Shown here: one piece after another, positions 18,843-61,928 of the stretch
Layout of the letters: every line of letters starts with the position of its first letter
Position numbering within the stretch: the first letter of the stretch is position 1
NCBI RefSeq assembly: GCF_046105845.1
Contig: NZ_CP151004.1
From: Escherichia coli
GTDB lineage: Bacteria; Pseudomonadota; Gammaproteobacteria; Enterobacterales; Enterobacteriaceae
DNA: 64,000 nucleotides
Direction: 5' to 3' (one strand)
Position numbers and translations under genes: made by a program
The notes under the pieces: generated by a model
What the model saw: only the letters and a program-made list of their open reading frames with translations
Databases searched by the model: none
Told to the model about the DNA's origin: nothing

Positions 18843-18929
18843 GCGAAGGTGGCGGAATTGGTAGACGCGCTAGCTTCAGGTGTTAGTGTCCTTACGGACG
18901 TGGGGGTTCAAGTCCCCCCCCTCGCACCA
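18843..18929 (+). tRNA. leuQ: tRNA-Leu (CAG), copy 3
   Basis: Identical to copy 1. Confidence 0.95.
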
Positions 18930-18967
18930 ATTATCTTTACTTCCTTTCTTGTTGCTTCCCTGTTTTA

Positions 18968-19204: not shown

Positions 19205-19222
19205 GGTTTCATCTCTTTCATT

Positions 19223-19262
19223 GATAATGATAACTAATATCATATGATAATTTTTATCATTT
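19223..19262. promoter_or_regulatory. Fur boxes in the yjjZ-fhuF divergent region
   Basis: GATAATGATAACTAATATC (19223-19241) matches the 19-bp Fur consensus GATAATGATAATCATTATC at 16/19. A second GATAAT...TATCAT element lies at 19246-19260. Confidence 0.75.
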
Positions 19263-19344
19263 GCAAGCCAGAGAAATCCCTTGCTATCGGGTAAACCTAT
19301 CGCTAGGATTAGCAATCATTATCATTTAGATTACTATCCCGATT

Positions 19345-42658: not shown

Positions 42659-44248
42659 ATGAACAATAACGATCTGGTCGCGAAGCTGTGGAAGCTGTGC
42701 GACAACCTGCGCGATGGCGGCGTTTCCTATCAAAACTACGTCAATGAACTCGCCTCGCTGCTGTTTTTGAAAATGTGTAAAGAGACCGGACAGGAAGCGG
42801 AGTACCTGCCGGTAGGCTACCGCTGGGATGATCTGAAATCCCGTATCGGTCAGGAGCAGTTGCAGTTCTACCGTAACCTGCTGGTACATCTGGGCGCCGA
42901 CAATCAAAAGCTGGTGCAGGCGGTGTTCCAGAACGTCAACACCACCATTACCCAGCCGAAACAGTTGACCGAGCTGGTCAGCAATATGGATTCACTGGAC
43001 TGGTACAACGGTGCGCACGGTAAGTCGCGCGATGACTTCGGCGATATGTACGAAGGGCTGCTGCAGAAGAACGCCAACGAAACCAAGTCTGGCGCGGGCC
43101 AGTACTTCACCCCGCGTCCGCTGATTAAAACCATTATTCATCTGCTGAAACCGCAGCCGCGTGAAGTGGTGCAGGATCCGGCAGCAGGTACGGCGGGCTT
43201 TTTGATTGAAGCCGACCGCTACGTTAAGTCGCAAACCAATGATCTGGACGACCTTGATGGCGACACGCAGGATTTCCAGATCCACCGCGCCTTTATCGGC
43301 CTCGAACTGGTGCCCGGCACCCGTCGTCTGGCGCTGATGAACTGCCTGCTACACGATATTGAAGGCAACCTCGACCACGGCGGCGCAATCCGTCTGGGCA
43401 ACACCCTGGGTAGCGACGGTGAAAATCTGCCGAAGGCGCATATTGTCGCCACTAACCCGCCGTTTGGCAGCGCCGCAGGCACCAACATTACCCGCACCTT
43501 TGTCCACCCGACCAGCAACAAACAGTTGTGCTTTATGCAGCATATTATCGAAACGCTGCATCCCGGCGGTCGTGCGGCGGTAGTGGTGCCAGATAACGTG
43601 CTGTTTGAAGGCGGCAAAGGCACCGACATCCGTCGTGACCTGATGGATAAGTGTCATCTGCATACCATCCTGCGTCTGCCGACCGGTATTTTTTACGCTC
43701 AGGGCGTGAAAACTAACGTGCTGTTCTTTACCAAAGGGACGGTGGCGAACCCGCATCAGGATAAGAACTGCACCGATGATGTGTGGGTGTACGACCTGCG
43801 TACCAATATGCCGAGCTTCGGCAAGCGCACGCCGTTTACCGACGAGCATTTGCAGCCGTTTGAGCGCGTGTATGGCGAAGATCCCCACGGTTTAAGCCCG
43901 CGCACTGAAGGTGAATGGAGTTTTAACGCCGAAGAGACGGAAGTTGCCGACAGCGAAGAGAACAAAAACACCGATCAGCATCTGGCTACCAGCCGCTGGC
44001 GCAAGTTCAGCCGCGAGTGGATCCGCACCGCGAAATCCGATTCGCTGGATATCTCCTGGCTGAAAGATAAAGACAGTATTGATGCCGACAACCTGCCGGA
44101 GCCGGATGTATTAGCGGCAGAAGCGATGGGTGAACTGGTGCAGGCGCTGGGCGAACTGGATGCGCTGATGCGTGAACTGGGGGCGAGCGATGAGGCCGAT
44201 TTGCAGCGTCAGTTGCTGGAAGAAGCATTTGGTGGGGTGAAGGAATGA
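42659..44248 (+). CDS. hsdM: Type I R-M N6-adenine methyltransferase subunit
   Basis: 529 aa with the SAM motif DPAAGTAGF and catalytic NPPF. Confidence 0.95.
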   Translation: MNNNDLVAKLWKLCDNLRDGGVSYQNYVNELASLLFLKMCKETGQEAEYLPVGYRWDDLKSRIGQEQLQFYRNLLVHLGADNQKLVQAVFQNVNTTITQPKQLTELVSNMDSLDWYNGAHGKSRDDFGDMYEGLLQKNANETKSGAGQYFTPRPLIKTIIHLLKPQPREVVQDPAAGTAGFLIEADRYVKSQTNDLDDLDGDTQDFQIHRAFIGLELVPGTRRLALMNCLLHDIEGNLDHGGAIRLGNTLGSDGENLPKAHIVATNPPFGSAAGTNITRTFVHPTSNKQLCFMQHIIETLHPGGRAAVVVPDNVLFEGGKGTDIRRDLMDKCHLHTILRLPTGIFYAQGVKTNVLFFTKGTVANPHQDKNCTDDVWVYDLRTNMPSFGKRTPFTDEHLQPFERVYGEDPHGLSPRTEGEWSFNAEETEVADSEENKNTDQHLATSRWRKFSREWIRTAKSDSLDISWLKDKDSIDADNLPEPDVLAAEAMGELVQALGELDALMRELGASDEADLQRQLLEEAFGGVKE

Positions 44249-45615
44249 GTGCGGAGAAATTGCCGGAGGGGTGGGTTGAGTGTGAATTATCCGAACTCGG
44301 TAACATTGTTACAGGGAAAACTCCCAGTACCAAGGAGCCTTCCAATTTTGGAGGCAGCATTCCTTTCATTAAACCAGGCGATCTTGATCTCGGTGGCTAT
44401 ATCATGAATACCGCCGATACTCTGACGGAGAAAGGGTTATCTCTTGTCCCCACTCTTCCTGCCAATTCAGTCGTTGTGACGTGTATTGGAAATTTAGGAA
44501 AAGTTGGAATTACCGCTAAAAAATCAGCATCTAATCAACAAATAAATGCATTGATCCCGTCAGAAAAGCTAAATGTAAAATTTGTTTATTACCAAATTTT
44601 AACATTAAAACCATGGTTAGAGTCTCAATCAGCAGCTACTACAATTGCGATTGTGAACAAGAGCAAATTTTCTCAGGCACCATTTAAATTCCCGTCGCTT
44701 GCCGAACAAAAAATCATCACTGAAAAACTCGATACGCTGCTGGCGCAGGTAGACAGCACCAAAGCACGTCTTGAGCAAATCCCACAAATCCTGAATCGTT
44801 TTCGTCAGGCTATTCTAGCTAATGCTGTGGAAGGAAAATTGACCGACGAATGGCGAGCCGGAAAATGTTATATTACAGAAATCAAAAAAATATCTGATAT
44901 TATTCAGAATGCTCAAGTCGGATTAGTTCGTTCAGCTTCAGATCAAAGCGAAATATGCACTCAAAAAATGAGAACGCCTTATATAAAAATGAATAACATT
45001 CACAATGTTCTCGGAACAAATTTAGAAAAACTCGCTTATGTCAACTGTGATAGCTATGAACTGGAAAAATATAGATTAAAAAATGGAGATTGGCTCTTTA
45101 ATACACGAAATAGTTATGAGTTAGTTGGTAAATCCTGTGTCTGGAATGGATGTAGCAATGCTGTATATAATAATAATATATTAAGAGTTAGACTAAAAGA
45201 AAACTACAATTCTGTTTTTTTAGATTATTGGTTTCACTCGTTCTATGGAGTGAGCATGCTTAATAGTATTAAATCCGCAACAACAAATGTTGCTGCGATA
45301 TATCAGAAAGAACTCTTAAGTAAAAGTGTTCCATTCCCCCCCCTTCCCGAACAAGCCGAGATTGTTCGCCGCGTCGAACAACTCTTCGCCTACGCCGACA
45401 CCATAGAAAAACAGGTCAACAACGCCTTAGCCCGCGTTAACAACCTGACGCAATCCATCCTGGCAAAAGCGTTCCGTGGTGAACTCACCGCCCAGTGGCG
45501 GGCCGAAAACCCGGATTTAATCAGCGGAGAAAACAGCGCCGCCGCGTTGCTGGAAAAAATCAAAGCTGAACGCGCAGCCAGCGGGGGTAAAAAAGCCTCG
45601 CGTAAAAAATCCTGA
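44245..45615 (+). CDS. hsdS: Type I R-M specificity subunit with non-EcoKI target recognition domains
   Basis: 456 aa. The conserved central region (LAEQKIITEKLDTLLAQVDSTKARLEQIPQIL) and C-terminal region (LPEQAEIVRRVEQLFAYADTIEKQVNN...) are as in EcoKI HsdS. The two intervening AT-rich TRDs differ from EcoKI as I remember it. Confidence 0.9.
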   Translation: MSAEKLPEGWVECELSELGNIVTGKTPSTKEPSNFGGSIPFIKPGDLDLGGYIMNTADTLTEKGLSLVPTLPANSVVVTCIGNLGKVGITAKKSASNQQINALIPSEKLNVKFVYYQILTLKPWLESQSAATTIAIVNKSKFSQAPFKFPSLAEQKIITEKLDTLLAQVDSTKARLEQIPQILNRFRQAILANAVEGKLTDEWRAGKCYITEIKKISDIIQNAQVGLVRSASDQSEICTQKMRTPYIKMNNIHNVLGTNLEKLAYVNCDSYELEKYRLKNGDWLFNTRNSYELVGKSCVWNGCSNAVYNNNILRVRLKENYNSVFLDYWFHSFYGVSMLNSIKSATTNVAAIYQKELLSKSVPFPPLPEQAEIVRRVEQLFAYADTIEKQVNNALARVNNLTQSILAKAFRGELTAQWRAENPDLISGENSAAALLEKIKAERAASGGKKASRKKS

Positions 45616-45627
45616 TCATTATTTTCT

Positions 45628-45652
45628 GGCGCACCTTTCCGGTGCGCTTTTT
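45628..45652 (+). terminator. Intrinsic terminator after hsdS
   Basis: GCGCACC-tttcc-GGTGCGC followed by TTTTT. Confidence 0.75.
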
Positions 45653-45747
45653 ATTATTTTACGCCAATCATAACTCACGCAAATATATTTAAATCATTCC
45701 AGAAATTGCCTATTTTATTCTATTTTTAGCTGGACTTTCCCTGTATT

Positions 45748-45767
45748 TACTGATGATATATCCAGGT
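45748..45767. promoter_or_regulatory. LexA (SOS) box upstream of symE
   Basis: TACTGATGATATATCCAGGT has the form CTG-N10-CAG (45750-45765), compared with the consensus TACTGTATATATATACAGTA. Confidence 0.7.
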
Positions 45768-45771
45768 ATTT

Positions 45772-45848
45772 AGCGCGGTGCGGATGTGCGCCAACACACC
45801 CGCACCGCTCATCACAATCACTATTCCAGGAGAATAGCAGTTATGACT
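45772..45848 (-). ncRNA. symR: SymR antisense RNA (antitoxin of symE)
   Basis: Mapped from the remembered K-12 geometry: 77 nt, starting 6 nt inside symE and running antisense over its RBS. A TAAAAT -10 lies 7 nt upstream of the predicted start (AGTCATAACTGC...). The 3-prime hairpin is GCGGTGCGG...CCGCACCGC. Confidence 0.65.
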
Positions 45849-46184
45849 GACACGCATTTTATTGCACAACCGTTCGAAGCAGAAGTCTCCCCGGCAAATA
45901 ACCGTCAATTAACCGTGAGTTATGCGAGCCGCTACCCGGATTACAGCCGTATTCCCGCCATCACCCTGAAAGGTCAGTGGCTGGAAGCCGCCGGTTTTGC
46001 CACCGGCACGGCGGTAGATGTCAAAGTGATGGAAGGCTGTATTGTCCTCACCGCCCAACCCCCCGCCGCTGAAGAGAGCGAACTGATGCAGTCGCTGCGC
46101 CAGGTGTGCAAACTGTCGGCGCGTAAACAAAAGCAGGTGCAGGCGTTTATTGGAGTGATTGCCGGTAAACAGAAAGTCGCGTAA
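45843..46184 (+). CDS. symE: SOS-induced toxin SymE (AbrB-fold, type I TA)
   Basis: 113 aa from ATG 45843, [52 protein letters not shown]... Confidence 0.9.
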
Positions 46185-46345
46185 CAGCGTTTACTCCCGG
46201 TTAACCACCGGGAGCCTTCCACTGACTCAATAGAAACTTTCCCCCTCAGTAAATATTTACCTGCCTGATTGTGCAGTAAAAATCTATTGTTTCAGTACGT
46301 TGCGAAAGCGATAATAGAGGCTTAGCAATGAGGAAGGCACATCTT

Positions 46346-47725
46346 ATGGAATCAATTCAAGCCTGGATTGAAAAATTTATTGAGCAAGCACAGCAACAAA
46401 GTTCGCAATCCACTAAAGATTATCCAACGTCTTACCGTAACCTGCGAGTAAAAGTGAGTTTCGGTTATGGCAATTTTACATCTATTCCCTGGTTTGCATT
46501 TCTTGGAGAAGGTCAGGAAGTTTCTAACGGTATATATCCCGTTATTCTCTATTATAAAGATTTTGATGAGTTGGTTTTGGCTTATGGTATAAGTGACACG
46601 AATAAACCACATGCACAATGGCACTTTTCTTCTGACATACCTAAAACAATCGCAGAGTATTTCCAGGCAACTTCAGGTGTATATCCTAAAAAATACGGAC
46701 AGTCCTATTACGCCTGTTCCCAAAAAGTCTCACAGGGTCTTGATTATACCCGGCTTGCCTCCATGCTGGACAACATAATCAACGACTATAAATTAATATT
46801 TAATTCTGGCAAGAGTGTTATTCCACCTATGTCAAAAACTGAATCATACTGTCTGGAAGATGCGTTAAATGATTTGTTTATCCCTGAAACCACAATAGAG
46901 ACGATACTCAAACGATTAACCATCAAAAAAAATATTATCCTCCAGGGGCCGCCCGGCGTTGGAAAAACCTTTGTTGCACGCCGTCTGGCTTACTTGCTGA
47001 CAGGAGAAAAGGCTCCGCAACGCGTCAATATGGTTCAGTTCCATCAATCTTATAGCTATGAGGATTTTATACAGGGCTATCGTCCGAATGGTGTCGGCTT
47101 CCGACGTAAAGACGGTATATTTTACAATTTTTGTCAGCAAGCTAAAGAGCAGCCAGAGAAAAAGTATGTTTTTATTATAGATGAAATTAATCGTGCCAAT
47201 CTCAGTAAAGTATTTGGCGAAGTGATGATGTTAATGGAACATGATAAACGAGGTGAAAACTGGTCTGTTCCCTTAACCTACTCCGAAAACGATGAAGAAC
47301 GATTCTATGTCCCGGAGAATGTTTATATTATCGGTTTAATGAATACTGCCGATCGCTCTCTGGCCGTTGTTGATTATGCCCTGCGCAGACGATTTTCTTT
47401 CATAGATATTGAGCCAGGTTTTGATACACCACAGTTCCGGAATTTTTTACTGAATAAAAAAGCAGAACCTTCATTTGTTGAGTCTTTATGCCAAAAAATG
47501 AACGAGTTAAACCAGGAAATCAGCAAAGAGGCCACTATCCTTGGGAAAGGATTCCGCATTGGGCATAGTTACTTCTGCTGTGGGTTGGAAGATGGCACCT
47601 CTCCGGATACGCAATGGCTTAATGAAATTGTGATGACGGATATCGCCCCTTTACTCGAAGAATATTTCTTTGATGACCCCTATAAACAACAGAAATGGAC
47701 CAACAAATTATTAGGGGACTCATAG
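46346..47725 (+). CDS. mcrB: 5-methylcytosine-specific restriction enzyme McrBC, GTPase/DNA-binding subunit McrB
   Basis: 459 aa from ATG 46346 (MESIQAWIEKFIEQ...) with the AAA+ GTPase motif GPPGVGKT. An internal in-frame ATG at 46829 (Met162, MSKTESY...) corresponds to the known McrB-S start. Confidence 0.95.
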   Translation: MESIQAWIEKFIEQAQQQSSQSTKDYPTSYRNLRVKVSFGYGNFTSIPWFAFLGEGQEVSNGIYPVILYYKDFDELVLAYGISDTNKPHAQWHFSSDIPKTIAEYFQATSGVYPKKYGQSYYACSQKVSQGLDYTRLASMLDNIINDYKLIFNSGKSVIPPMSKTESYCLEDALNDLFIPETTIETILKRLTIKKNIILQGPPGVGKTFVARRLAYLLTGEKAPQRVNMVQFHQSYSYEDFIQGYRPNGVGFRRKDGIFYNFCQQAKEQPEKKYVFIIDEINRANLSKVFGEVMMLMEHDKRGENWSVPLTYSENDEERFYVPENVYIIGLMNTADRSLAVVDYALRRRFSFIDIEPGFDTPQFRNFLLNKKAEPSFVESLCQKMNELNQEISKEATILGKGFRIGHSYFCCGLEDGTSPDTQWLNEIVMTDIAPLLEEYFFDDPYKQQKWTNKLLGDS

Positions 47726-48771
47726 TGGAACAGCCCGTGATACCTGTCCGTAATATCTATTACATGCTTACCTATGCATGGGGTTATTTACAGGACATTA
47801 AGCAGGCCGACCTTGAAGCCATACCCGGTAACAATCTTCTTGATATCCTGGGGTATGTATTAAATAAAGGGGTTTTACAGCTTTCACGCCGAGGGCTTGA
47901 GCTTGATTACAATCCTAATACCGAGATCATTCCTGGCATCAAAGGGCGAATAGAGTTTGCTAAAACAATACGCGGCTTCCATCTTAATCATGGGAAAACC
48001 GTCAGTACTTTTGATATGCTTAATGAAGACACGCTGGCTAACCGAATTATAAAAAGCACATTAGCCATATTAATTAAGCATGAAAAGTTAAATTCAACTA
48101 TCAGAGATGAAGCTCGTTCACTTTATAGAAAATTACCGGGCATTAGCACTCTTCATTTAACTCCGCAGCATTTCAGCTATCTGAACGGCGGAAAAAATAC
48201 GCGTTATTATAAATTCGTTATCAGTGTCTGCAAATTCATCGTCAATAATTCTATTCCAGGTCAAAACAAAGGACACTACCGTTTCTATGATTTTGAAAGA
48301 AACGAAAAAGAGATGTCATTACTTTATCAAAATTTTCTTTTTGAATTTTGCCGTCGTGAATTACCATCTGTAAATACAACTCGCCCACATTTAAAATGGG
48401 ATGCATCAAGCATATCGGATCAATCACTTAGCTTGTTACCTCGAATGGAAACTGACATCACCATTAACTCATCAGGGAAAATACTTATCGTTGATGCCAA
48501 ATACTATAAAAGCATTTTTTCACGACGAATGGGTACAGAAAAGTTTCATTCTCAAAATCTATATCAACTGATGAGTTACTTATGGTCGTTAAAGCCTGAA
48601 AATGGCGAAAAAACAGGGGGGTTATTAATATACCCACACGTAGACACCTCAGTGAAACATCGTTATAAAATTAATGGCTTCGATATTGGCTTGTGTACCG
48701 TCAATTTAGGTCAGGAATGGCCGTGTATACATCAAGAATTACTCGACATTTTCGGTGAATATCTCAAATAA
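47725..48771 (+). CDS. mcrC: McrBC nuclease subunit McrC
   Basis: 348 aa. GTG start at 47725 overlaps the mcrB stop (TAGTG). PD-(D/E)XK segment ...ETDITINSSGKILIVDAKYY. Confidence 0.9.
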   Translation: MEQPVIPVRNIYYMLTYAWGYLQDIKQADLEAIPGNNLLDILGYVLNKGVLQLSRRGLELDYNPNTEIIPGIKGRIEFAKTIRGFHLNHGKTVSTFDMLNEDTLANRIIKSTLAILIKHEKLNSTIRDEARSLYRKLPGISTLHLTPQHFSYLNGGKNTRYYKFVISVCKFIVNNSIPGQNKGHYRFYDFERNEKEMSLLYQNFLFEFCRRELPSVNTTRPHLKWDASSISDQSLSLLPRMETDITINSSGKILIVDAKYYKSIFSRRMGTEKFHSQNLYQLMSYLWSLKPENGEKTGGLLIYPHVDTSVKHRYKINGFDIGLCTVNLGQEWPCIHQELLDIFGEYLK

Positions 48772-48793
48772 GCGGTAAGTTTTATAGAAAATA

Positions 48794-48820
48794 CCGCTCC
48801 CGACACCACATCGGGAGCGG
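48794..48820. terminator. Perfect 10-bp hairpin between convergent mcrC and the giant helicase gene
   Basis: CCGCTCCCGA-caccaca-TCGGGAGCGG, with a T-rich tail on the minus strand (tattttct). Confidence 0.6.
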
Positions 48821-48827
48821 CTCATCA

Positions 48828-51800
48828 TCAGGAGGCGATCACCTCCACCAGCACATCCGTTGCCCAACTCTCTTCGCTGTTGGCGACATTCCCTTCCTTG
48901 CAGGCCTGAGCCATTTTGACTAACTGGAAAGAAACGTCATCGCGGAAATCAAAGTAATGCCATTGCGATGCAAAGTTGATGCGCCAGTAGCCCATCCCCT
49001 GATCGAAGCGGATCTTCAATACCTGACCATCATCAAAAGTCACCGTCAGTTTACGATGGTGAGGGATATCGCGCGGCGAGTCGAACACCGTCAGTTCTAC
49101 CGGCCTGCCCAGCGCAGCAGCAAACCACTGATCAGCGAAATCCTGAAAATCCGCTATGCTCATCCAGTCATGGAAAGGCCGGTTACCGGGGCGATCTTTA
49201 TCTTTAAATAGCGTATCCAGCGTCACTTCAGCGCCATCGGTCAGCTTTGTTTTTAGCGGTCTCAAAATTGATCCCAACAACGCCAGCGCAACCGGGTTTT
49301 GCAGATAGCGATCGGTATAGTGAACGCCGGTAATTCGCGTGTTATTCATCAGTGACTGCGCTTCTTCATGGTCGTTAAACAGCACGTCCCAGAAGCGTTG
49401 CCCAAACTGCGACAGTGGTCCATTCAACTGTTTGTGGATCTGAATGTCTTTGACCCGCTCGACAGCGTTGGCGGCTTTAGCCGGCAGAATAAATTCGTTC
49501 AGCTCTACCGTTTTATAGCCGAGACTACGTACCACCAGTTCGTCATTCAGGTGCCACTCCGGCCCCGGAATCGTTGCCTGCTGGCTACGAGAGGCCAGCG
49601 TCATCACGCGATCGGCAAAGGTGACCTGAGCAACGATCGGTAATTTCAAATCCTGTTCAACATGGCATAGCCGCACACCCAGCGCAGTAAATTGCGATAG
49701 TTCGTGCAACAGGTCCGGGTCATCCACTCCCGCAGGAATAACAAGATCGACCTCGACGTTGTCTTTTAGCCGATAGTTCTGAACCGCCGCGCGGAACTGA
49801 CGTGCGTATAAATCCCACTCATTGGGCGCGCCGGTCATCCACAGGGTGAGCTTTTCAGCGCCTTCGTTAATCGCCCGGCGAATCGTATCGCCAATGGCGC
49901 CAGGGCAGTAGCGGGCATCCGGCAGCGAGAATGTCTCTTCATCCGGTAAACCGATGTAATACGTGAAGTCATCGCCAAGCCAGGCCAGCGCCGCTTTGCG
50001 ATCCAGCAAATCGTGATCGTGGCGAGTCTGGGAATCAAGCAGGCATTCACTACATGCAGTCTCACAATGGCGGCAGCCTAACTGTTTCACCATTCCCTGC
50101 AATATAGCTTCAATGTGTACCGGTGCGCTGGAGGCAAAACCTGCACCACCGCTGATCACATCATAAAGCTGTACGGCTAATACCGATTGCCCATCCTCCA
50201 GTCTGACCGGACGTACAGAATAGCCGAGTTCTGCGGCGGAGATACCCAGAACGCCCGCCAGCGCCTGACGCAGAGCAACCGCCAGAGTCATGGCAACAAT
50301 CCGCCCCTCCTCTGTGTTATCTGGCAGATACTCGCCGTTTTGCGGTTTGCGCAGAACCATTTCAAAGACATCGGTGCGCGCCAGTGCGCCCAGGGTGACG
50401 TTCTTCATGAGTGCCGTCGAACCGGGGCAAATCAGACGATGATTCTGGCTATCGCGGTCCGCTTTACCCGGACGCGGTGGATAGTGAGCTTCCATGCTTT
50501 TCGGCGCATCATTTTCATTCAGCATCGACTCAGCACGGCCACAGCTCAGACACAATGCATAACCGTGTCCACCTTCCCCCAAACTTTGCTGGAAAACATG
50601 CCCATCAGCCCCAGAAGCCATATAACCCATTAGCGGGTTAGGCAACGGTACGGGCTCTGCTTTAACAAAGACCCACGCGGGGACAACCGGGACGAATTTC
50701 ATGGTTTCAATATTGTTCGTTACCGGAGCGTGTGCATCGGTGACAAACCCGGCAGGCTGCAGCACCTGACGGCGATTATCCATGATTATTTTTTCGCCGC
50801 AGGCGCTATTGGAGCAAAAGAGCATCCCGGAACTGCTCATCCCCTCTTCATAGCCAATGGTCCCGCATTTGTGACAGCGCCAGGCGCAATCCAGACGCTG
50901 GGCTTCATTGGTATCAGCATTAATGTTGTGCCAGTGCAGTGAGACACCGGCAGAGCGGAAGACACGGCCATCAAGAATGATCTCTGCTCCCGGTGCATAT
51001 TCACGAATGGCAACACCGAGGTTACGGGAAGGTAATCCTTTATAACGGGAGACGTTATCTTCACGGTCCTTTTTATCACGACTTTTTTGCGATTTTTCGC
51101 GGATATAATCTTCCATTGTGAAGTTATCAAACGTCACTACATCTGTCGGGAAACCGTATCCCGGCAAGAAGGTTCTGGCAGCTAGATCGCGCAGCAGATA
51201 CTCGCCACAGTGCCGTTTCTTCTCCAGCTCTATGCGCTTACGATAAGGCGTTTGCGGCTGCGACTCACGCTCCTGTGTCACGAGATCGCGATAAACGGAG
51301 AGCCACCGCTGCTGCAGGAAGGTGATCGCGTTGATTGTTTTATCCCGCAGATATTCGGCTCTTGCACCATGCAACGCCGTACCTTTCACCAGCCGTTCCA
51401 GCGCCGTGTCGATATCAAGAACAGGGCGTTCCAGCCAGACTTTGAAGCGTTCGCATTTTGACTGCCCGTCATCTTCACCGAAAAACCAGAGGCTATCGAG
51501 GCTGGTTTTCTCTTTATCGGTTTCGCCAATAACGTTACATAAAAAGTCGGACAGTAATAATGCATTGACGTGACGTTGCACCAGTCGGGCGGAGTTCATC
51601 GCGACCATGGGTGCCGGGATCATGGTTTCAAATGGCCAGAGCGGGTTGGCAAAAACCTGCTGGTCGTGTGGGTTACCTTTACATAGGGTGTAAGAGATCG
51701 CACGTGATTCTTTACTACGCCCGGCTCGCCCGGCGCGCTGTAAATAGTTGGCCGGATGTGGCGGTACGTTGTTCATTACCACCGCAGTAATGCCCCCGAT

Positions 51801-54800
51801 ATCAACCCCCATTTCCATGGTGGTGGAACAGTTGAGAACATTTAGTTGCCCATTCTTGAACATCTTTTCATAGCTTTGCAGACGTTCTGACGACTGCTGG
51901 GCAGAGTGCTCGGCAGTGCGATAGTAGAAACCGCCTTCCACGACACGATCGTTGATGTCTGTCCAGACGTTTTCCGACCGCAATTGTGCGATCAGCGGAT
52001 CATTGCTGACCCAGTCGCGTGCTTTTGCCAGACCCTCTGCGTAGTCTTCCTGTGAACGATCCAGCTTCCAGATTTCCGGCATGGTGACTTTCTGCGCGAC
52101 AAAAGTGTCATATTGCGCCTGGGTAAGATGCTCGAACGAAATATGGGTAGGCAGATAAGGGGTTAAGCCTTTAAAAGCCGTATCCAGGATTTTATTGGTT
52201 ACCGGGCAAATCCAGGCATCCGTGATTAATGAAAAAGTCATATGCTCTTTCGGTAAATAAAAACGGTTGCCATCGGGTTTCAGTACTGCAAGCGGTCCGG
52301 TAAGTTGGGCCCATGCTTCTTTCAGCCATGTATTGATAATATCAATAGTCGCCGTATTGACGGTTTTGAATCCAGCCCCCAGCATCAGTAACTTCGCTAA
52401 ACGATGGGATACGTTGCCATTACGAATTTGAGGCCAGCGTCTGTTCTGATTATCTTCAGGATCTTTTGATTCCGGGTTACGGACGAATTTTGATGAAAAA
52501 CGGCTACCGATCCAGTTTTTCAGCTCATCATCCAGCTGTGTGAAGTTGCTCTCACGAACGTAATGATCCAGCGTAACTTTGAGAAAATCGCGCCAGTCAT
52601 CCAGCGTTAATCCTTTTTCCTGCCAGTGCAGAGGGATCTTATGTATTTTCTCCAGCCCCAGGTAACCAACCTGAACCAGCCCTTGTGTTTCCAGGCTGTT
52701 AGTCCGTTTAGGGCGACGCATGAATTCCCGGAATAACAACATTTCCGAAAGCTTTAGAGGCCCGCCGTTTTCATTAAACACTTCAGGCTTAAGATAATGG
52801 TTATATTGCAGAACCGGGCCACGGATATCGGCTCTCTCTTTAAGCTCGTTAACCATTTCTGTCCAGGTTCGGGATACCAGAGTAATTGCAGCTTTTCCAC
52901 CGATTGCAGACTGGTAAGCCTGTTCAAGCTGCTCGGCCTGCGCTTCTGATAATTTCGCTTGATCCGGCAATCCCCAGCTTCGATATTCTTCTGCCTGCTC
53001 ACGGGCTTGCTTTACCCTGGTCGCTAATTTTTCCAGATCGGCATTAGCGTTCGGCGCCGTGGGCGTTTGCGTTCGTTGATGCCAGCTCAGAATTTCGACT
53101 ACGCTTCCGCGTAAGCGACTACGTTCTGCTTCTTGCTGCATACGCACCGCCATCCGGGCTGTCCCTTGTCGACTATCCGTAAAGGTAATGAGTCGACGTC
53201 CTCGCCCTGGCAACGAATCTGGTCCGACGCCCTCTTTGCCTTCATCACTGGCAAAGTCCTGACAATACTCAAGAACGGTAGGCACGATGTTAGTAACGTA
53301 AAATGGCCCACCTAATAATGCACGCCGAAAGGGTTGTTTTCCGCTCATGCCTCGGTAGCCACAGCCGCTGGCGCTACAAACCTGTTCAATATCATTAATA
53401 ATCAGCGGAATGCTGTCATTATTAATAACGCCAATACGGCGCGTCTGACGGTCGAGGCGTTGTAGGGTATAGCCTGTCTCGCTGGTCTCTCCTGCGGCAA
53501 TAATCAACGGAGGCTGGAAACTGTTCTCTTTTTCGACTTTTTCCTCTGTAGTGTCATGTTCAACAGGTACTTCATCCTGCAAGGAGAACTCATCGCCACC
53601 TTTATTTTCCCATTGGACAAGTTTGCCCTTTTTGTCCTGCGCCAGAAGATGAGGCTCATTACAATCATTACAGAACGCCACTTCGTATACAGGGCTTCCA
53701 CAGTCACAATTTTGTCGCTGGTTCACATACACATAGCCAAAGGGCCAGCCTTTTTCGAGCGGTGTACCGTGCTTTAATCTGCAATCTTTATCAACACAAG
53801 CCCATATTCCCTGGGTATTACGCTGGAAGATATGCGCCCTGACTTTAAGAAATGCGGGATCCTTTGCATTAGGTTGAGTCCCTGAACAGACATCGATCCA
53901 ACGCAGTACTTCCTGCTGGCTGTAATGCTGTTTTGTCAGCACGTTTAACCGCTCTGTTATCTCATCCAGCTTCATCGGATTGGGCTGTTTGACCAACATC
54001 TCACGTATGTAACGCGCTTCGGGGGAATGCGTAAGCGCATAAAAGCGATCAGGACTTATACCTTTAATTTTATTATCATTTTTATCTCTTAGATCCAGAT
54101 CGGGTATTTGCTCTATTTCGTCTAACGGAAGAGAAACGTTTTTGGATGGTTCCAGTTCAGGAATCACCCGACTTCCGTCCAGAACATCGATGCGCTCCTT
54201 CGGGATACCGGATAATTCAGAGAGAAATTTTTTCAGCTGCTTTTCGACGTCGCTGCCGGCAATGGTCGCAGAGGTCGCTACAAAGCGCACATCATCTGGC
54301 GTCACGCCAAACGCTGTCATCACACGACGCAGCTGGAGCGCCAGTTCAGCGGCCTGCGACCCGACATAGGTATGCGCTTCATCCAGTACAATCCAGCGTA
54401 GTGATTTTTGTGCTTTGGATTGCTGGATAATCGGGGCGTCGACCTGGCGAACCATCATATATTCCAGCATCGTGCCGTTGGTCACCAGAATCGGGGCAGG
54501 TTCTTCACGCATTTTTTCGCGCGAGAGCACCTCATTCGGCCTTTTTGCCTGTTCGCTTTTTACCGAAGCGTGTAGGTTTTCGGTGTTACCGTTGTAAAGG
54601 CAGTAGCGGATCCCGGTACCAAAACCACGCGTCCAGGCATCCAGACGCTCGCGCTGTGAATTAATCAGGGCGTTCAATGGATAGAGAAAAAGGGCTCGGA
54701 CACCGACCAACGGATTGTTGCCATTTTCATGCAGTTCCCGGTAAAGATCTTCCAGCACCGGTACCATAAAACATTCCGTTTTACCTGAACCCGTACCACT

Positions 54801-55172
54801 GGTTACCACCACTGAATGTTTCTTTTCCAGCAAAGCTTTCCAACTGGCTAACTGGTGTGTAAAAGGCTTCCAGTCAGCACCAAATCGGTACCGGCCATTA
54901 CTCTGATCATCCAGTGAATCAACCACTGCTTTGCTCAACAATGCGTTGCCTTCCGTCAGACTGCGCATCGTGTGGTTTGACTCCTTCCAGCCAAACATTT
55001 GCTGGAATACCGGAGAAGCAAGGAATGAGCCCGGTTTCCCACAATCAGCCCCCATTTGTTGCGCGAGATGTTCACGCAGCTGCGGGTTGGTTACGCCCAT
55101 GATACTGAGCGTTGCTTCAGTTGAACGAGACAACGATTGTTCAATAAGTGACGAAAAATAGCGTGTAGTCAT
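48828..55172 (-). CDS. druE: 2114-aa DExH-box helicase with DUF1998/MrfA-type zinc module and ~400-aa C-terminal extension (DruE-like)
   Basis: It has GTGSGKT (aa 126-132), DEAH (263-266), SAT (301-303), [12 protein letters not shown] (661-672), [11 protein letters not shown] (1117-1127), QRAGRAGR (1145-1152) and the cysteine cluster [11 protein letters not shown] (1700-1710). AGGA-type SD, 12 nt after the upstream stop. The symbol is assigned from architecture and memory only. Confidence 0.8.
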
Positions 55173-55184
55173 CCTTATTCCTTT

Positions 55185-58100
55185 TTATTTTTTAGCAACA
55201 TAACGCAACAGGCTGCACTGAAAGATGGTCTTAAACCAGCGGGAATCGAAGTCCCTGACTTGCCTCAGGAAAAATACGGCACCGGGTTTACGGTCAAATA
55301 CAGCTTCAAAAGAAGTATTTCCGCTTGCCACAGCTGCAGCGAAGACGGGTAACCAGGCCACGGAATAGCGGTGATTTGCGTCAGGATTAATACCAATCAC
55401 TGGCTTTTTTTGTGACATCATCCATTTATACAGACGCTTGCAGCCATATTCAGGCCAGCGAGCTTCACTGTGCTCACGTAAAAGCTCCTGATACCACCCG
55501 TGGACACAAGATTCAGGAATAGACGGAGGGAGATATCCGTTACTTAACCATTTCTCAATTTCATCGGCATATGTCGGGAACACGAGCCCCAGCCGTTGAA
55601 ACATATTAGTAACCAGTAATTTCTGGGTTTCCTCCGGTGCACCTTTTTGGCTCAGGAACAATTTGAAACGCTCAGATGCAGCTTTGATCTCAAAGATGGG
55701 GAAAAACTCCCATAGAATAGGGAACTCATTCTCAATACGACTCAGGTACTCTGCTGACATTTCAAATTTGAAGAGCGACATTGCCAATGCCTGCGGATGC
55801 TGCACCAGTGCACGCCATACTTCAAAGGTTGCCAGTGGTAAATACCCGAATTGATCGTACAGGCTACGCATAAATTGCCAGCCGGAATGGGCAGGATCGT
55901 TAGCCATCTGTCCGAGAACCAGTGTGATGGTATTAACTTCTGCCTGTGGATTAAAAAGCTGGGTCGCTTTCTGCAATGAGCGGATGTTGCTTTCTTCTAC
56001 CGGTAACGAAGATTCGCCACGAATGAAGCAGGGACGAAAAGCCATCTCTTCACCCGGTTTAGGGACAACCAACCACGGTCCATTTTTGTTAACGATTGAG
56101 CTCAACTCATATTCACCGACAGGCACTCCCTCGCTCATTCTAGATGCTAAGGGAATGGATTTCCTCTCGGGTTCACTTAACAGCATGATAACGGGGGAAG
56201 GAATCTGCCCAGCACGATGGTTCACTGACTGGCTGAGTAATAGTTCTTTTTCATAATCATAGCGCAGGCTGTATTTATAGCGACGAATTTGCCAGGCCAT
56301 GACCACACCTGCCCCCGTAATACGCATCTCAACAACCTGATCAATACCTGCCTCAAGTGAAATCAGGTTCTCAATATGTTCGCGAAGACTATAGAGATTC
56401 AATTCAACAGGACGATCGCTCAACGCCGTATAACACCATTCATGCCATGCCTGTAATCCACTAACGGAGCGCAAATACAACTGCAATGTATATTTTGTCG
56501 GCTCACCATTTCTGGAGAACAGAAACGCTCTGGAACCCAGCAGATCATGCAGCGTAATGTTTTTATCCAGAGGACGTCCGTTTACATCAAGAGCGAGACA
56601 GCCTTTAGCGGGAAAAGGTAACTCAATGTCGATGGGGTCAGCCGCCAAATTAGGCAGAACTTGTAATGTAATAAATGCCGGAGGTACCCCTTCCGCTTTA
56701 AGTTGTATCTCTGTTCGCCCCTCAGTACGCTTACGTGTAGCCTCCAATGTTTTATCTTTAAGTTTTGCTACACAAGGATGCTGTGTGGTGATTAAGATAG
56801 TGCCTTCATTTGCGTGCATTCCACCTTTTATCTCAATACTGAAATCAGCAGGCAAGATACCGATTTTGCGACGCAAGAGCGTTTCATTGTTACTATTACG
56901 GATAGAAAGATATTGAGCCCCCAGCATCTCTTGTATATGACATTGCTCAATTGAAATTCCGCTCAGGTAACGCGTTACATCAATGCTTTGAATATCCGGT
57001 AGTGTAGAAATGACTTTTGGTACACCAATAAATGTTTCATCTGGATGACAAACCCAGCTTGCACGCTTTCCATTTAGAGCAAACCTTCCGATGCTGATTT
57101 GTTCTCTTCCGGTGCGAATCCGATAAGTTTCATTTGCTGTAACTGTAACGTCCTGACATCCCTTCACAGGTAGTGCTTTTAGTCCTAATACGTTTACTGC
57201 GCTCGATTGGCCATCAAAACCAGCAACATTGCTATTATCCCGAGGGAGTACAATCAGAACATCGCTGCTTCGCACACTGCAAGAAGCCTGTCCCTGTAAC
57301 AGCCATTGATCTGCATCAACGATGAAGGTTAACGGCACCTCACCAATGGCAATTTCACTGTCATCAAGTTTAATGCTCCCAACAATCATCCCTCCAGCAC
57401 GAGCCACTAATGACAAACCTGCCGATGGATTTTGCCTGACAAATCTCACTTCGCTTTTACGTAATCGAACTGTTGCCTGTCTGTTTTCCAGGGAAGCATA
57501 GGCTGGCCCAAGGCCAGAGACTTCCTCACCATCTTCACAAATGGCAAGTTCAAAGCGCGTAGTTGACGGCTCGCTTGTTACAGGAAAGGAAACTTCGTCC
57601 GGAAGAGATACTATCACCCTAAGCTCATCTGGATGCTTTTCTGACCAATAGAATTGGCAACGCGTACTCTTATTTTTTTGTAGTCGAGGCTTAGCCTCTA
57701 CAGAGGCTGCGCATAGCAGTCCATTCAAAAAATGCGTTCCTGTTTCATCATCTAACGGTATTGGAAACTCGCTTCGCCAGGTAGGGTGAACCTTCTCAAG
57801 CTGTTGTACTGGTTCTTTGTGATTTATTAGGTTGTGAGTAAGTACTAAGGAATTGAGGTTATCAGCCATATGACTGATAAGTTCTACAGAGGTATCTTCG
57901 CTAAAAACAGTTGGCAGCGCTGATTTTTCTATGACAGCTCTTGCCAGCGAAAGGGCAGAAAAACCTGACTGCTTTGCTTGCTCATATTGTCCAAGGATCC
58001 TGGAGAAAACAGCCAGAAAGCGACTGTCTGATTCTTTGAGTAGCCGGAAAGGTAAACCACCTTCACTGAATAATGTTCCGAGAAAATTGCGTCGTTCAGA

Positions 58101-58475
58101 TTCATAAAATCGAATTGGGCGCAGCCAGTAATCTTCCATCCCTTTCGGTACGATAGTACCAAGCTCTGTGGCGGTGAATGAAATCCCTATTTTTTTATAT
58201 ATAGGGTCCCACGTCCATCCGCATTGCCGTTCATAATCCCTGCGGTACCACTCAGAGCAAAAAAGAACAAAACAGGCAGCAAAGTCCCTATTACATATAT
58301 TAGATTGTGATTGATCGACCGCACGGAGTAGCTGCGTTAATTGGGTATATTCATCATTGGTTGCATGATATTCATAAAGAGGACGGCCATCCGGTTGTCT
58401 CAACCCTCTAAGATTCACAAAGTTACTTAGCCAGGAAGTACATTTTACCCATGAAATGTATTCTGATTGACCCAA
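55185..58475 (-). CDS. druH: ~1100-aa protein of unknown function, operon partner of the helicase (DruH-like; STY4851/ECs_5259-type from memory)
   Basis: The long ORF has no recognisable catalytic motif. The preferred start is TTG 58475, 6 nt after AAGGAG (58482-58487). The ORF-track start GTG 58523 has no SD. There is no in-frame ATG near the 5-prime end. Confidence 0.75.
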   Translation of the reverse strand: MGQSEYISWVKCTSWLSNFVNLRGLRQPDGRPLYEYHATNDEYTQLTQLLRAVDQSQSNICNRDFAACFVLFCSEWYRRDYERQCGWTWDPIYKKIGISFTATELGTIVPKGMEDYWLRPIRFYESERRNFLGTLFSEGGLPFRLLKESDSRFLAVFSRILGQYEQAKQSGFSALSLARAVIEKSALPTVFSEDTSVELISHMADNLNSLVLTHNLINHKEPVQQLEKVHPTWRSEFPIPLDDETGTHFLNGLLCAASVEAKPRLQKNKSTRCQFYWSEKHPDELRVIVSLPDEVSFPVTSEPSTTRFELAICEDGEEVSGLGPAYASLENRQATVRLRKSEVRFVRQNPSAGLSLVARAGGMIVGSIKLDDSEIAIGEVPLTFIVDADQWLLQGQASCSVRSSDVLIVLPRDNSNVAGFDGQSSAVNVLGLKALPVKGCQDVTVTANETYRIRTGREQISIGRFALNGKRASWVCHPDETFIGVPKVISTLPDIQSIDVTRYLSGISIEQCHIQEMLGAQYLSIRNSNNETLLRRKIGILPADFSIEIKGGMHANEGTILITTQHPCVAKLKDKTLEATRKRTEGRTEIQLKAEGVPPAFITLQVLPNLAADPIDIELPFPAKGCLALDVNGRPLDKNITLHDLLGSRAFLFSRNGEPTKYTLQLYLRSVSGLQAWHEWCYTALSDRPVELNLYSLREHIENLISLEAGIDQVVEMRITGAGVVMAWQIRRYKYSLRYDYEKELLLSQSVNHRAGQIPSPVIMLLSEPERKSIPLASRMSEGVPVGEYELSSIVNKNGPWLVVPKPGEEMAFRPCFIRGESSLPVEESNIRSLQKATQLFNPQAEVNTITLVLGQMANDPAHSGWQFMRSLYDQFGYLPLATFEVWRALVQHPQALAMSLFKFEMSAEYLSRIENEFPILWEFFPIFEIKAASERFKLFLSQKGAPEETQKLLVTNMFQRLGLVFPTYADEIEKWLSNGYLPPSIPESCVHGWYQELLREHSEARWPEYGCKRLYKWMMSQKKPVIGINPDANHRYSVAWLPVFAAAVASGNTSFEAVFDRKPGAVFFLRQVRDFDSRWFKTIFQCSLLRYVAKK

Positions 58476-58973
58476 AGCAAGCTCCTTAGAGATAAAAGAT
58501 ACAAAAACAAAACCCCACAACACTTCTAATTTGAAAGAAAACTTTTCAAAATATCGTATAATTAATCAGGCGGCAACAACTAATTTTTCAGGTCGGTACT
58601 ATAAATTAATTTTAGATAAAAATGATATCAACCATCTATTAATCACAACTCATTTATCACCTGGTTTTATAATTTCAAATGAAAATAAATCTCAAACAAT
58701 CAAAAAGTATGCAGTAGCTAACATTTAACTTTCCAGGATATAAAACAATTAGAGAAACTGCACAATAGCGAATAATGAAAGTTGTAAAGTCAGTCAAAAA
58801 ACACAAGCAATCAGTGTGCGTTTTTTGACCGTTATCGACATGAGTTTAAAGAGTTTAGTGAAGAAGATATTCCTGTACACTCCATACCTATTGATGAATT
58901 GTCTCGGGAAAATTTTTATAACTTAATTTAAAAACATAAAAACGTTTTATTATATATAAATCTATACCCCCCC

Positions 58974-59138
58974 TCACTCCACATCCTCCCTGCGTAACCC
59001 AATATCCCTCAACCGCTCATCACTCATCTGCTGTAACACCCGCCGGGCCTGCATTTGCCGCCGCCAACGCCTCACTGCCTGCCAGAGTTGCACAAGTCCA
59101 ATAAACGGTGCTTTAGCTTTGTTTTCGTGAAATTCCAT
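58974..59138 (-). CDS. yjiS: DUF1127 small protein YjiS (54 aa; below ORF-track cutoff)
   Basis: My own translation of the minus strand is MEFHENKAKAPFIGLVQLWQAVRRWRRQMQARRVLQQMSDERLRDIGLRREDVE. There is a GAGGAGG SD 6 nt upstream. Confidence 0.8.
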   Translation of the reverse strand: MEFHENKAKAPFIGLVQLWQAVRRWRRQMQARRVLQQMSDERLRDIGLRREDVE

Positions 59139-59314
59139 CTGCTGCCTCCTCATCTTTCAGAGGCTTCATCATCCGTCTTCTGGCAGTTCACAATACAGAT
59201 GCAAATATTAGTTTTATTTAACATACAGACAGGTTAAAACAGCATCTGCATCCGGTTTTTTAGCCTCATCTGTACCGGTTTTTCTCTCTGTATGGTCCAA
59301 ATAAGGAACACAGC

Positions 59315-60727
59315 ATGACGCGTTATCAACATCTGGCGACTCTACTTGCCGAGCGGATTGAGCAGGGGCTGTATCGTCACGGGGAGAAATTGCCGTCGGT
59401 GCGCAGCTTAAGTCAGGAGCACGGCGTCAGTATCAGCACCGTGCAGCAAGCGTACCAGACGCTGGAGACGATGAAGCTCATCACTCCGCAGCCGCGTTCG
59501 GGTTATTTTGTCGCACAACGTAAAGCCCAGCCGCCAGTGCCGCCGATGACGCGTCCGGTGCAGCGCCCGGTGGAAATAACCCAGTGGGATCAGGTGCTGG
59601 ACATGCTGGAGGCGCATAGCGACAGTTCCATTGTTCCGTTAAGCAAAAGCACGCCGGATGTCGAAACGCCCAGCCTGAAACCGCTCTGGCGGGAGCTAAG
59701 CCGGGTGGTGCAGCATAATCTGCAAACCGTTCTCGGTTATGACTTGTTAGCCGGTCAGCGGGTATTGCGCGAGCAGATTGCCCGCCTGATGCTCGACAGC
59801 GGCTCGGTAGTCACCGCCGATGACATCATCATTACCAGCGGCTGCCATAATTCGATGTCGATGGCGTTAATGGCGGTGTGTAAACCGGGCGATATTGTCG
59901 CGGTCGAATCCCCCTGTTATTACGGTTCGATGCAGATGCTGCGCGGCATGGGCGTGAAAGTGATTGAAATCCCAACCGATCCAGAAACTGGCATCAGCGT
60001 TGAAGCGCTGGAATTGGCGCTGGAACAGTGGCCGATTAAAGGCATCATTCTGGTGCCAAACTGTAATAATCCGCTGGGATTTATTATGCCGGACGCGCGC
60101 AAACGGGCCGTTCTCTCGCTCGCTCAGCGTCATGATATTGTGATTTTTGAAGATGATGTCTACGGCGAACTGGCGACGGAGTATCCGCGCCCGCGGACCA
60201 TTCATTCCTGGGATATCGACGGGCGAGTGCTACTGTGCAGCTCGTTCAGTAAAAGTATTGCACCTGGCCTGCGCGTGGGTTGGGTCGCACCGGGGCGTTA
60301 TCACGATAAACTGATGCATATGAAATACGCCATCAGCAGCTTTAATGTGCCGTCCACGCAAATGGCGGCGGCAACGTTTGTGCTGGAAGGTCACTATCAT
60401 CGCCATATCCGGCGGATGCGGCAGATCTATCAGCGCAATCTGGCACTTTATACCTGCTGGATACGGGAATATTTTCCCTGCGAAATCTGTATTACGCGCC
60501 CGAAAGGCGGATTTTTACTGTGGATAGAATTGCCTGAACAGGTCGATATGGTCTGCGTCGCGCGGCAGCTGTGCCGCATGAAAATCCAGGTGGCGGCAGG
60601 CTCGATTTTCTCGGCTTCCGGCAAATACCGTAATTGTCTGCGCATCAACTGCGCTTTGCCGCTCAGCGAAACCTATCGCGAAGCACTAAAACAAATTGGC
60701 GAGGCCGTGTATCGGGCAATGAAATGA
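59315..60727 (+). CDS. yjiR: MocR-type regulator YjiR (GntR HTH + aminotransferase-like domain)
   Basis: 470 aa with an N-terminal GntR HTH (LPSVRSLSQEHGVSISTVQQAYQTLE) and a PLP-fold C-terminus (...SSFSKSIAPGLRVGW). Confidence 0.85.
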   Translation: MTRYQHLATLLAERIEQGLYRHGEKLPSVRSLSQEHGVSISTVQQAYQTLETMKLITPQPRSGYFVAQRKAQPPVPPMTRPVQRPVEITQWDQVLDMLEAHSDSSIVPLSKSTPDVETPSLKPLWRELSRVVQHNLQTVLGYDLLAGQRVLREQIARLMLDSGSVVTADDIIITSGCHNSMSMALMAVCKPGDIVAVESPCYYGSMQMLRGMGVKVIEIPTDPETGISVEALELALEQWPIKGIILVPNCNNPLGFIMPDARKRAVLSLAQRHDIVIFEDDVYGELATEYPRPRTIHSWDIDGRVLLCSSFSKSIAPGLRVGWVAPGRYHDKLMHMKYAISSFNVPSTQMAAATFVLEGHYHRHIRRMRQIYQRNLALYTCWIREYFPCEICITRPKGGFLLWIELPEQVDMVCVARQLCRMKIQVAAGSIFSASGKYRNCLRINCALPLSETYREALKQIGEAVYRAMK

Positions 60728-60970: not shown

Positions 60971-61928
60971 TTAGTACTCGATCCAAGGATCGCGCTTGCT
61001 TTCAGGCAAGGGCTGCTCTAATGCCTGCATTTGCTCTGCCGAGAGTCCGGTATATCGTTGTATCCATTCAGGATCTGCCCCATTCTGCAACAACAATCGG
61101 AGGAGGCTCCGTTCCCCTTCTACTTTCCCTTCTTTCCTCCCCCTCTCCCTTCCCAACAGCCATCCATCATTATGAATTCGCTCTGCAATCGTCATTATTC
61201 GCTCCCTTTGTTGTGGCATTCGACTGGTTAGTTCGCTGATAAACTCTTTAAAACGCGCTTCATCGCCAGTCAGTAAAATGTAATTTAACAGCGCAGTTAT
61301 CTGGCTGTCATTAGTACACTCTGTAACCAGTAATACTACCAGTTGGTCGATAAGTCCCATCAGATCGCGCTGGCGAATATGCTTTTGGATCAACTCCAAC
61401 AGGGCGACTCTGCGATGCTGCACAATCTCGTCGTCTGGCACGACAGTGACATCCACCAGCGGGAACGCGGCGTTATAAACTTTCCGTGCGGTAGCCGGGT
61501 CGGCAAATTCGTCCAGCCAGCACAGGGACCAGGGATAAGGACTACGGCTACCGTGATAAAACAGCATCGGGATGACCAGCGGTAGCGGCCGGCGTTTATC
61601 ATGCTCGATATGGCGCTGCATCACCGCCATGGAATAGCGCATAAGGCGAAACGCCATATGAATATCCTCGCGGCTCTGATGTTCAATCACTACGTAAATA
61701 TAACCATCACCTTCACGGGTCTTTACCGACCACAGAAATATCGGAATGTAGCGCCCGCAATTTTTCATCGACAAAGCTGGCGGATTCCAGTTTTAAGCTG
61801 TCGAGATCGCACAGTTCACGTAAATCTTTGGGTAAGTGGATCTCCATAAAATCCCGCGCGGTGTCAGGGTGCGTGAGAAAGGATTTAAATAATGCGTCAT
61901 GCGGCGTGCTGGTTGTGAAGTTTGTCAT
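60971..61928 (-). pseudogene. rpnD: Rpn-family recombination-promoting nuclease (PD-(D/E)XK, transposase_31), split by a 1-nt frameshift
   Basis: ORF 61713-61928 ([27 protein letters not shown]...LHSDI) and ORF 60971-61774 (...[21 protein letters not shown]...) join into one Rpn protein if one base of the A-run at 61736-61738 is removed. Confidence 0.75.

Follow-up and report, generated by a model that had tools for sequence, protein, structure and literature searches.

Type III Druantia systems, whose broad protection in Escherichia coli was shown in 2022, were the subject of four preprints and one journal paper on their mechanism in 2026, and homologous systems have been found to protect against phages by 10^3- to 10^7-fold. 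These 2026 studies agree that both genes, druH and druE, are needed, that defence in E. coli hosts is direct and not abortive, and that DruE forms dimers and acts as an ATP-dependent DNA helicase of the MrfA type with 3'-5' polarity, which engages single-stranded DNA (ssDNA) at tails and forks and whose helicase and MrfA zinc-binding domain (MZB) motifs are essential. In the work of Loeff et al., DruH is a 3'-5' exonuclease, and DruE and DruH assemble 1:1 on forked DNA into a complex whose phospholipase D (PLD) pocket degrades DNA. Wu et al., whose phylogeny comprises 15 clades, ascribe nuclease activity to DruE and describe DruH both as a dimer-dependent nuclease (nickase) and as a sensor of phage proteins. 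The system of M. smegmatis blocks the circularisation of phage DNA in response to a tail protein, in a manner described as abortive. Here we have analysed a window of 64,000 nucleotides from E. coli (RefSeq assembly GCF_046105845.1, contig NZ_CP151004.1), whose minus strand encodes an intact operon of the two genes. We interpret this locus with high confidence as a complete anti-phage system of Druantia type III-A that is maintained by selection and would combine the DruE helicase with DruH-assisted degradation. An earlier note made from the letters of the window had called the mechanism of such systems unknown, a view that is outdated in light of five studies providing structures and mechanisms, although these are mutually conflicting.

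The two genes and the domains of DruE are located at the following window positions:

48828-55172, minus strand: druE, present in K-12 as the remnant yjiV, with 2114 codons from an ATG, encoding a Druantia type III helicase of the YprA/MrfA-like SF2 group
55185-58475, minus strand: druH, present in K-12 as the remnant yjiT, with 1096 codons from a TTG at 58475, matched by the DruH3 and YjiT_fam profiles
54243-54857, minus strand: RecA1/DEAD domain of DruE, residues 106-310 (Pfam PF00270, 81.3 bits)
51714-51920, minus strand: RecA2/Helicase_C core of DruE, residues 1085-1153 (Pfam PF00271, 45.7 bits)
50040-50282, minus strand: MZB (DUF1998) of DruE, residues 1631-1711 (Pfam PF09369, 38.6 bits)
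48831-50030, minus strand: predicted tandem PLD-like domains of DruE, residues 1715-2114 (AlphaFold2 model with a mean pLDDT of 88.9, compared with the PDB by Foldseek)

The identity of DruE is defined by the match of its residues 1-2110 to the PADLOC profile DruE3 (PDLC00037), which reaches 2696.7 bits and covers positions 1-2053 of 2055, whereas the corresponding profiles for types I, II and IV give only piecemeal matches (355-540 bits). Besides the DEAD, Helicase_C and MZB families, Pfam identifies ResIII, and the protein contains helicase motifs I, II (DExH), III and VI together with a four-cysteine MZB located C-terminal to the core, as is characteristic for YprA/MrfA-like SF2 helicases. 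The structure of YprA (PDB 6znp) is correspondingly matched by sequence at 3.7e-17. The motifs include the Walker A sequence GTGSGKT at residues 126-132 (nt 54777-54797), SAT at residues 301-303, a motif-IV-like stretch of 12 residues at 661-672, an 11-residue motif at 1117-1127, QRAGRAGR at 1145-1152 (nt 51717-51740) and the cluster C1700/C1703/C1707/C1710 within residues 1700-1710 (nt 50043-50075), all of which are found exactly where the earlier note had placed them. Only the DEAH motif had to be moved by one codon downstream, from residues 263-266 to 264-267 (nt 54372-54383). The note's proposal of a zinc module of the DUF1998/MrfA type is borne out by the Pfam match listed above. The helicase motifs, including all motif residues of RecA1, are invariant among 30 DruE homologues, as are cysteine clusters that include the four cysteines of the MZB. 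The solved E. coli DruE (EcDruE, PDB 9tu7) matches residues 5-2089 of the window protein with 1026 bits. In this alignment, the EcDruE residues G118/G120/K121/D251/E252, R1135, R1138 and the MZB cysteines C1681/C1683/C1687 all face identical residues, with R1149/R1152 of the window protein corresponding to R1135/R1138 and C1700/C1703/C1707 to C1681/C1683/C1687. Mutation of the Walker A and DEAH motifs, of R1135/R1138 or of the MZB cysteines in EcDruE abolishes defence.

The product of the upstream gene had been described as a partner devoid of any recognisable motif, which holds for our older local copy of Pfam, where DruH has no match, but not for other collections, since NCBIfam and PADLOC both place it in the YjiT/DruH family. 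In the numbering of the longest open reading frame (ORF), the PADLOC profile DruH3 (PDLC00049) matches residues 19-1112 with 1829.3 bits and the NCBIfam model NF038336 (YjiT_fam; YjiT/STY4851/ECs_5259) scores 1261.5 bits at a cut-off of 150, while the newer Pfam families YjiT_N, YjiT_2nd and YjiV_N are recorded on homologues. An AlphaFold2 model of DruH (pLDDT 82.1) consists of a helical region (residues 1-265), a β-rich, immunoglobulin (Ig)-like region (272-820), which in a Foldseek search resembles receptors with multiple Ig domains, and a second helical region (834-1095). The predicted sequence of a helical domain, an Ig-like array and a further helical domain would thus reproduce the architecture seen by cryo-electron microscopy in the P. 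aeruginosa protein PaDruH. By sequence, the solved E. coli DruH (EcDruH, PDB 9tud) matches the window protein at residues 14-266 only. This N-terminal domain, which in PaDruH holds residues required for function (Loeff et al.), contains the invariant charged positions R23, D29, R31, E42, E75, R78, R79 and E138.

With a full-length match to DruE3 and a DruH3 gene directly upstream on the same strand, the locus has the organisation of Druantia type III, and the end-to-end profile matches of both proteins and the match to DUF1998 therefore uphold the assignment that the earlier note had made from the architecture; the refuting outcome that it had named, a lack of matches to DruE/DruH or DUF1998 profiles, did not occur. 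The system consists of two genes, since its flanks are occupied by the convergent mcrC on one side and by yjiS/yjiR on the other, and no other match to a Druantia profile was found among the neighbours covered by the scan, which extended to all but some small ORFs. Both the system and its locus are known, automated annotation, for instance by PADLOC, would recognise it, and the link between yjiT and DruH is already present in PADLOC, NCBIfam, the new Pfam families and the literature of 2026.

A pronounced feature of DruE concerns the approximately 404 residues that follow the cysteine cluster. Their presence had been noted before, without an explanation, and our model of residues 1715-2114, which was built from an alignment of 40 homologues, suggests that they fold into two α/β repeats of the PLD-like type. 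The best matches in a Foldseek search, with E-values down to 2.5e-8, all belong to the PLD superfamily and include the C-terminal domains of PPK, PssA (phosphatidylserine synthase), MITD1, a Streptomyces PLD, PLD3/4, TDP1 and the nuclease domain of SauUSI. The entries 9tu7 and 9tud were not among the matches to the searched PDB copy, which covers releases until 8 April 2026; both were found by sequence search. Across 30-40 homologues with identities of 34-89%, among them the O157 protein, the residues Y1952, D1954-R1955-Y1956 (DRY, nt 49305-49313), H2038, R2040 (HxR, nt 49053-49061) and D2057 are invariant. In comparison with the allele of 24AR0357, the ratio of nonsynonymous to synonymous substitution rates (dN/dS) of the C-terminal 400 residues is 0.12 and the region is thus constrained. 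Since Bell et al. (2025) separated subtype III-A from III-B by a pair of PLD-like domains at the C-terminus of DruE, which III-B lacks, the modelled tandem module assigns the system by its domain content to subtype III-A.

The conserved residues of this module correspond at the level of motifs to the pocket of the P. aeruginosa protein, with DRY and HxR equivalent to D1917/R1918/Y1919/H1999/R2001 of PaDruE, where the mutations D1917A and R1918A abolish defence (Loeff et al.). By analogy to the systems of P. aeruginosa and E. coli ATCC8739/EDL933, both proteins would be needed, and the system would act directly on its target and not by killing the cell, independently of host methylation. DruH would bind or trim the 3' end of ssDNA and join DruE at forked DNA, whereby the dimer of DruE would pass from its autoinhibited state into an active complex. 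Unwinding of the phage DNA would follow and, most likely, its degradation in the DRY/HxR pocket, which belongs to the second PLD-like domain. Of all the steps in this proposal, that of the nuclease is the least certain. It is the invariance of DRY and HxR across clades, combined with the low dN/dS of the C-terminus, that leads us to favour a helicase with DruH-assisted degradation.

Several observations weigh against this proposal. The reports conflict on the role of DruH and on the nuclease activity of DruE, with two groups finding none and two finding it to be essential: Hu et al. and Himpich et al. observed no nuclease activity and dispensable PLD domains in the ATCC8739 system, and Hu et al. 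describe DruH as an ATP-inhibited binder of ssDNA without nuclease activity. The canonical PLD motif HxK(x)4D is absent from DruE of the window, whose sole conserved histidine motif is H2038-H-R2040-K-L-T-V-T-F-D (HxR). The identity to the E. coli systems with known structures amounts to only 33-35% for DruE and 22-24% for DruH, and the residues Y191, H1415, H1574 and H1576, which form part of a dimer interface in EcDruE (interface III), are not conserved. We found no experimental test of the clade of the window system, and that its own AT-rich upstream region drives its expression is presumed. Finally, the P. aeruginosa DruE that we retrieved (59% identity) has other residues at the positions published for PaDruE; judging by its numbering, it is a homologue and not the variant studied, which limits the mapping to the invariant motifs.

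Under an alternative mechanism, DruE would only unwind phage DNA and DruH, once freed from inhibition by ATP as DruE consumes it, would coat and immobilise the ssDNA, with the PLD-like domains being dead and dispensable and the clearance left to host nucleases, possibly McrBC or the type I enzyme. Besides the biochemistry of Hu et al. and Himpich et al. and the missing HxK(x)4D motif, such a mechanism draws support from R1079 and K1082 of the window DruH, which align with the ATP-contacting residues R1064 and K1067 of EcDruH. We take it seriously but consider it rather unlikely, because a dispensable, dead domain is hard to square with the invariance of DRY, HxR and D2057 across very divergent DruE proteins and with the constraint on the C-terminus, and because mutations of the PLD pocket abolish defence in P. 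aeruginosa, as R1258A does in the Nobrega study.

A different role of DruH is suggested by the long Ig-like array of its model, whose Ig-like/baseplate-J-like region could recognise a phage tail or baseplate protein and so license DruE, perhaps with abortive infection as the outcome. Such a function mainly as a protein sensor is in line with the report by Wu et al. that DruH and a T4 gp7-like baseplate protein co-immunoprecipitate weakly, with the positive selection reported for the Ig-like domains of the ATCC8739/EDL933 systems and with the activation of the M. smegmatis system by Gp25, a minor tail protein, where the response is described as abortive. The pattern in the window clade is the opposite, since here the Ig-like region is, on the basis of few substitutions, the most constrained part of DruH, with a dN/dS of 0.07 compared to 0.41 in the N-terminal helical domain, where only 12 substitutions were counted. 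As three independent studies observed growth at high multiplicity of infection, and hence no abortive infection, and as the DruE-DruH complex assembles in vitro with DNA alone, we regard a mechanism centred on protein sensing as decidedly improbable for this system.

The layout of the operon is that of two co-directional minus-strand ORFs with 2114 and 1096-1112 codons, as previously described. The boundaries of its transcription and translation are marked by three further elements:

55173-55184, minus strand: druH-druE spacer of 12 nt (AAAGGAATAAGG) with an AAGGA Shine-Dalgarno sequence, as read from the letters
48793-48821, minus strand: hairpin that forms the intrinsic terminator of druE, within the 56 nt between this gene and the stop codon of the convergent mcrC
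58476-58972, minus strand: AT-rich region (approximately 36% GC) between yjiS and druH, the presumed promoter region by composition and sequence

The longest druH ORF extends from a GTG at 58523 to 55185 on the minus strand and has 1112 codons. The start of the gene is more likely the TTG at 58475, since this is the start annotated by RefSeq for the identical gene in other strains (codon 17, resulting in 1096 residues), since it is preceded at a spacing of 6 nt by AAGGAG, and since the alignment to the family profiles begins at residues 19-31 of the longer version. In the spacer between the genes, AAGGA is found 6 nt ahead of the druE ATG at 55172, which matches both the gap and the ribosome-binding site reported before and makes a translational coupling of the two genes likely. 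The hairpin behind druE, at 48794-48820, contains the 10 Watson-Crick pairs that had been noted and two flanking G.U pairs in the minus-strand RNA. Its folding energy is -24.1 kcal/mol (z = -4.35), which was matched by none of 200 shuffled sequences, and a terminator scan counted 13 pairs with ATTTTCTATA behind them on the minus strand. The hairpin had been regarded as shared with mcrC, but no U-run follows it on the mcrC strand and the U-rich tail is confined to the minus strand; it is therefore the terminator of druE, which merely adjoins the stop codon of mcrC. In the region upstream of druH, which is kept in K-12 at 98% identity, a scan for sigma-70 promoters found no match to the consensus at the threshold of the tool.

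The same locus is decayed in K-12. The strain W3110 aligns to the window only at 48601-49615, 51800-53949 and 56967-59400, with an identity at the nucleotide level of 95.7-98.4% in the same place and orientation, and thus lacks 49616-51799 in the 3' half of druE as well as 53950-56966, which includes the 5' end of druE and the 3' half of druH. These two deletions account for the fragments known as yjiT and yjiV, which the earlier note had correctly named as decayed, and the K-12 pseudogenes are thus the wreck of a type III Druantia system, whose intact copy is retained at the same site in a minority of E. coli. In a search of 5426 complete E. coli genomes with a query of 10.3 kb, 675 contained a match, which was chromosomal in every case, and in 223 it covered at least 80% of the query, placing an intact copy at this locus in about 4% of the genomes as judged from sequence coverage. 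In BL21 the locus is truncated to about one third of the query, and in other strains it is interrupted by insertion sequences (IS) of the IS3 or IS66 families, as in E. coli DLI.6n (2125-5988), where two IS3 copies reside in druH. This independent and repeated inactivation suggests that the system is frequently lost. A cluster of 921-residue proteins with 229 members, which share 98% identity with the N-terminal 40% of DruH and contain a match to MZB, presumably represents a DruH-DruE fusion ORF made by deletion.

The repeated decay, to which a split druE in S. Typhi can be added, the upstream region rich in AT and without a match to the sigma-70 consensus and the resemblance of the DruE core to the repair helicase MrfA would also be compatible with a silent or non-functional relic, or with a helicase that serves DNA repair as a housekeeping function. 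We consider either highly improbable in light of the full length of both ORFs with respect to their profiles and of the dN/dS values relative to the 24AR0357 allele, which at 0.115 for druE and 0.102 for druH indicate purifying selection on both genes; the synonymous divergence between the two druE alleles is high (dS 0.11). The location among restriction genes, the similar setting of homologues in S. Typhi and P. aeruginosa and the phage protection conferred by homologous systems equally speak for a defence function.

The operon is located inside the immigration control region, where it adjoins mcrBC. The earlier note had described it as docked onto mcrBC, which turned out to be a matter of positional adjacency only: in JNEC-KY178, intact druHE is found next to symE without mcrBC, and K-12 contains mcrBC next to decayed druHE. 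A functional docking was thus rejected, and so was a role in modification-dependent restriction, given that a homologous system works in a methylation-free host and that the operon contains no methyltransferase. The GC content of the region varies between 39-45% over hsdS-symE-mcrBC (44000-49000), 51-55% in the 3' half of druE (49000-51000) and 36% upstream of druH, a mosaic consistent with separate origins of its modules. The hsdS gene at 44245-45615 scores 469 bits with the EcoKI-type model, below the cut-off of 662, and encodes 456 residues compared to 496 in the closest strain, which points to another recognition specificity at an otherwise conserved hsdRM. The E. coli ATCC8739/EDL933 system, known as cluster 11, synergises with Zorya II. 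The system of the window resides outside this cluster with respect to its low identity, and no Zorya or ARMADA genes are found near the locus. We speculate, while considering it doubtful, that the clade of the immigration control region has its own phage range and cooperates functionally with the surrounding restriction enzymes (McrBC, type I Hsd and Mrr), for example by using or creating DNA ends and ssDNA.

Beyond the operon, an ORF at 60971-61774 in the yjiP/yjiQ region encodes a recombination-promoting nuclease of the Rpn family, which aligns from about position 60 of the profile and may be N-terminally truncated or use another start; its K-12 counterpart is a pseudogene with an internal stop. 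At the opposite side of the window, positions 1-15400 contain one end of a lambdoid prophage beside yjjG (15753-16430), which encodes an integrase (14144-15367, minus strand), an S24 repressor (8430-9104), the antiterminator Q (1884-2678) and CII-like, Ash, replication HTH, KilA-N and DUF968/HNH proteins. Among the ORFs of the first 14 kb, a PADLOC search yielded no additional defence system. Between rsmC and fhuF, three tRNA-Leu(CAG) genes in tandem (leuQPV-like, 18607-18929) are part of an ordinary core-genome context.

Among described systems, that of E. coli ATCC8739/EDL933 (O-island 172, cluster 11; PDB 9tu7-9tuc for DruE and 9tud for DruH) has the same two-gene operon, with a DruE of about 2100 residues that contains a helicase core, zinc clusters, MZB and two PLD-like domains in the same order and a DruH of about 1100 residues belonging to the same NCBIfam family (STY4851/ECs_5259 = YjiT). 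In contrast to the 12-nt gap in the window, its genes overlap. The Pseudomonas homologues (DruE 59%, DruH about 45% identical) are closer to the window system than this E. coli cluster is, and the other nearest named relatives of the window system are found in Pantoea/Kalamiella (DruE 88-89%, DruH 75%) and in S. Typhi, whose STY4851 is 63% identical to DruH. The S. Typhi locus is located beside a ScoMcrA-like HNH gene and an IS element. Its druH homologue STY4851 is intact, and its druE is probably a pseudogene, as it consists of two overlapping ORFs encoding 845 and 1281 residues (13313-19637 of the read assembly), with no gene called at this position in the NCBI assembly. The P. aeruginosa homologues are bordered by type I hsdMS together with an OLD-family nuclease and by DarT, on an island (1-26336) encoding RmuC, HsdM/HsdS, an OLD-family ATPase-nuclease, DruH, DruE, DarT, a trio of VWA, PP2C and kinase proteins and a large AAA_11/AAA_12 helicase. 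The homologues of both organisms thus also reside in defence islands.

With MrfA/YprA of B. subtilis, DruE shares the SF2 core, the OB and connector domains, the zinc-binding MZB and a 3'-5' translocation. However, MrfA has only 751 residues, it lacks PLD-like domains and large insertions, and it acts together with the exonuclease MrfB in DNA repair and not in defence. As a divergent natural variant, the system of the window lends itself to comparisons that ask if the PLD-like pocket has a catalytic role and if there is cooperation with neighbouring restriction systems, and, with its fully conserved DRY/HxR pocket, this orthologue could help to settle the dispute concerning the nuclease activity of DruE. 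The type III system of P. aeruginosa (Loeff, Chanez and Jinek 2026) has the same architecture, with a DruH composed of a helical domain, six Ig-like domains and a second helical domain, and a DruE that combines the helicase with DUF1998, OB and two PLD-like domains, whose DRY and HxR motifs are separated by 82 residues and are invariant in the window clade, where the spacing is 84 residues.

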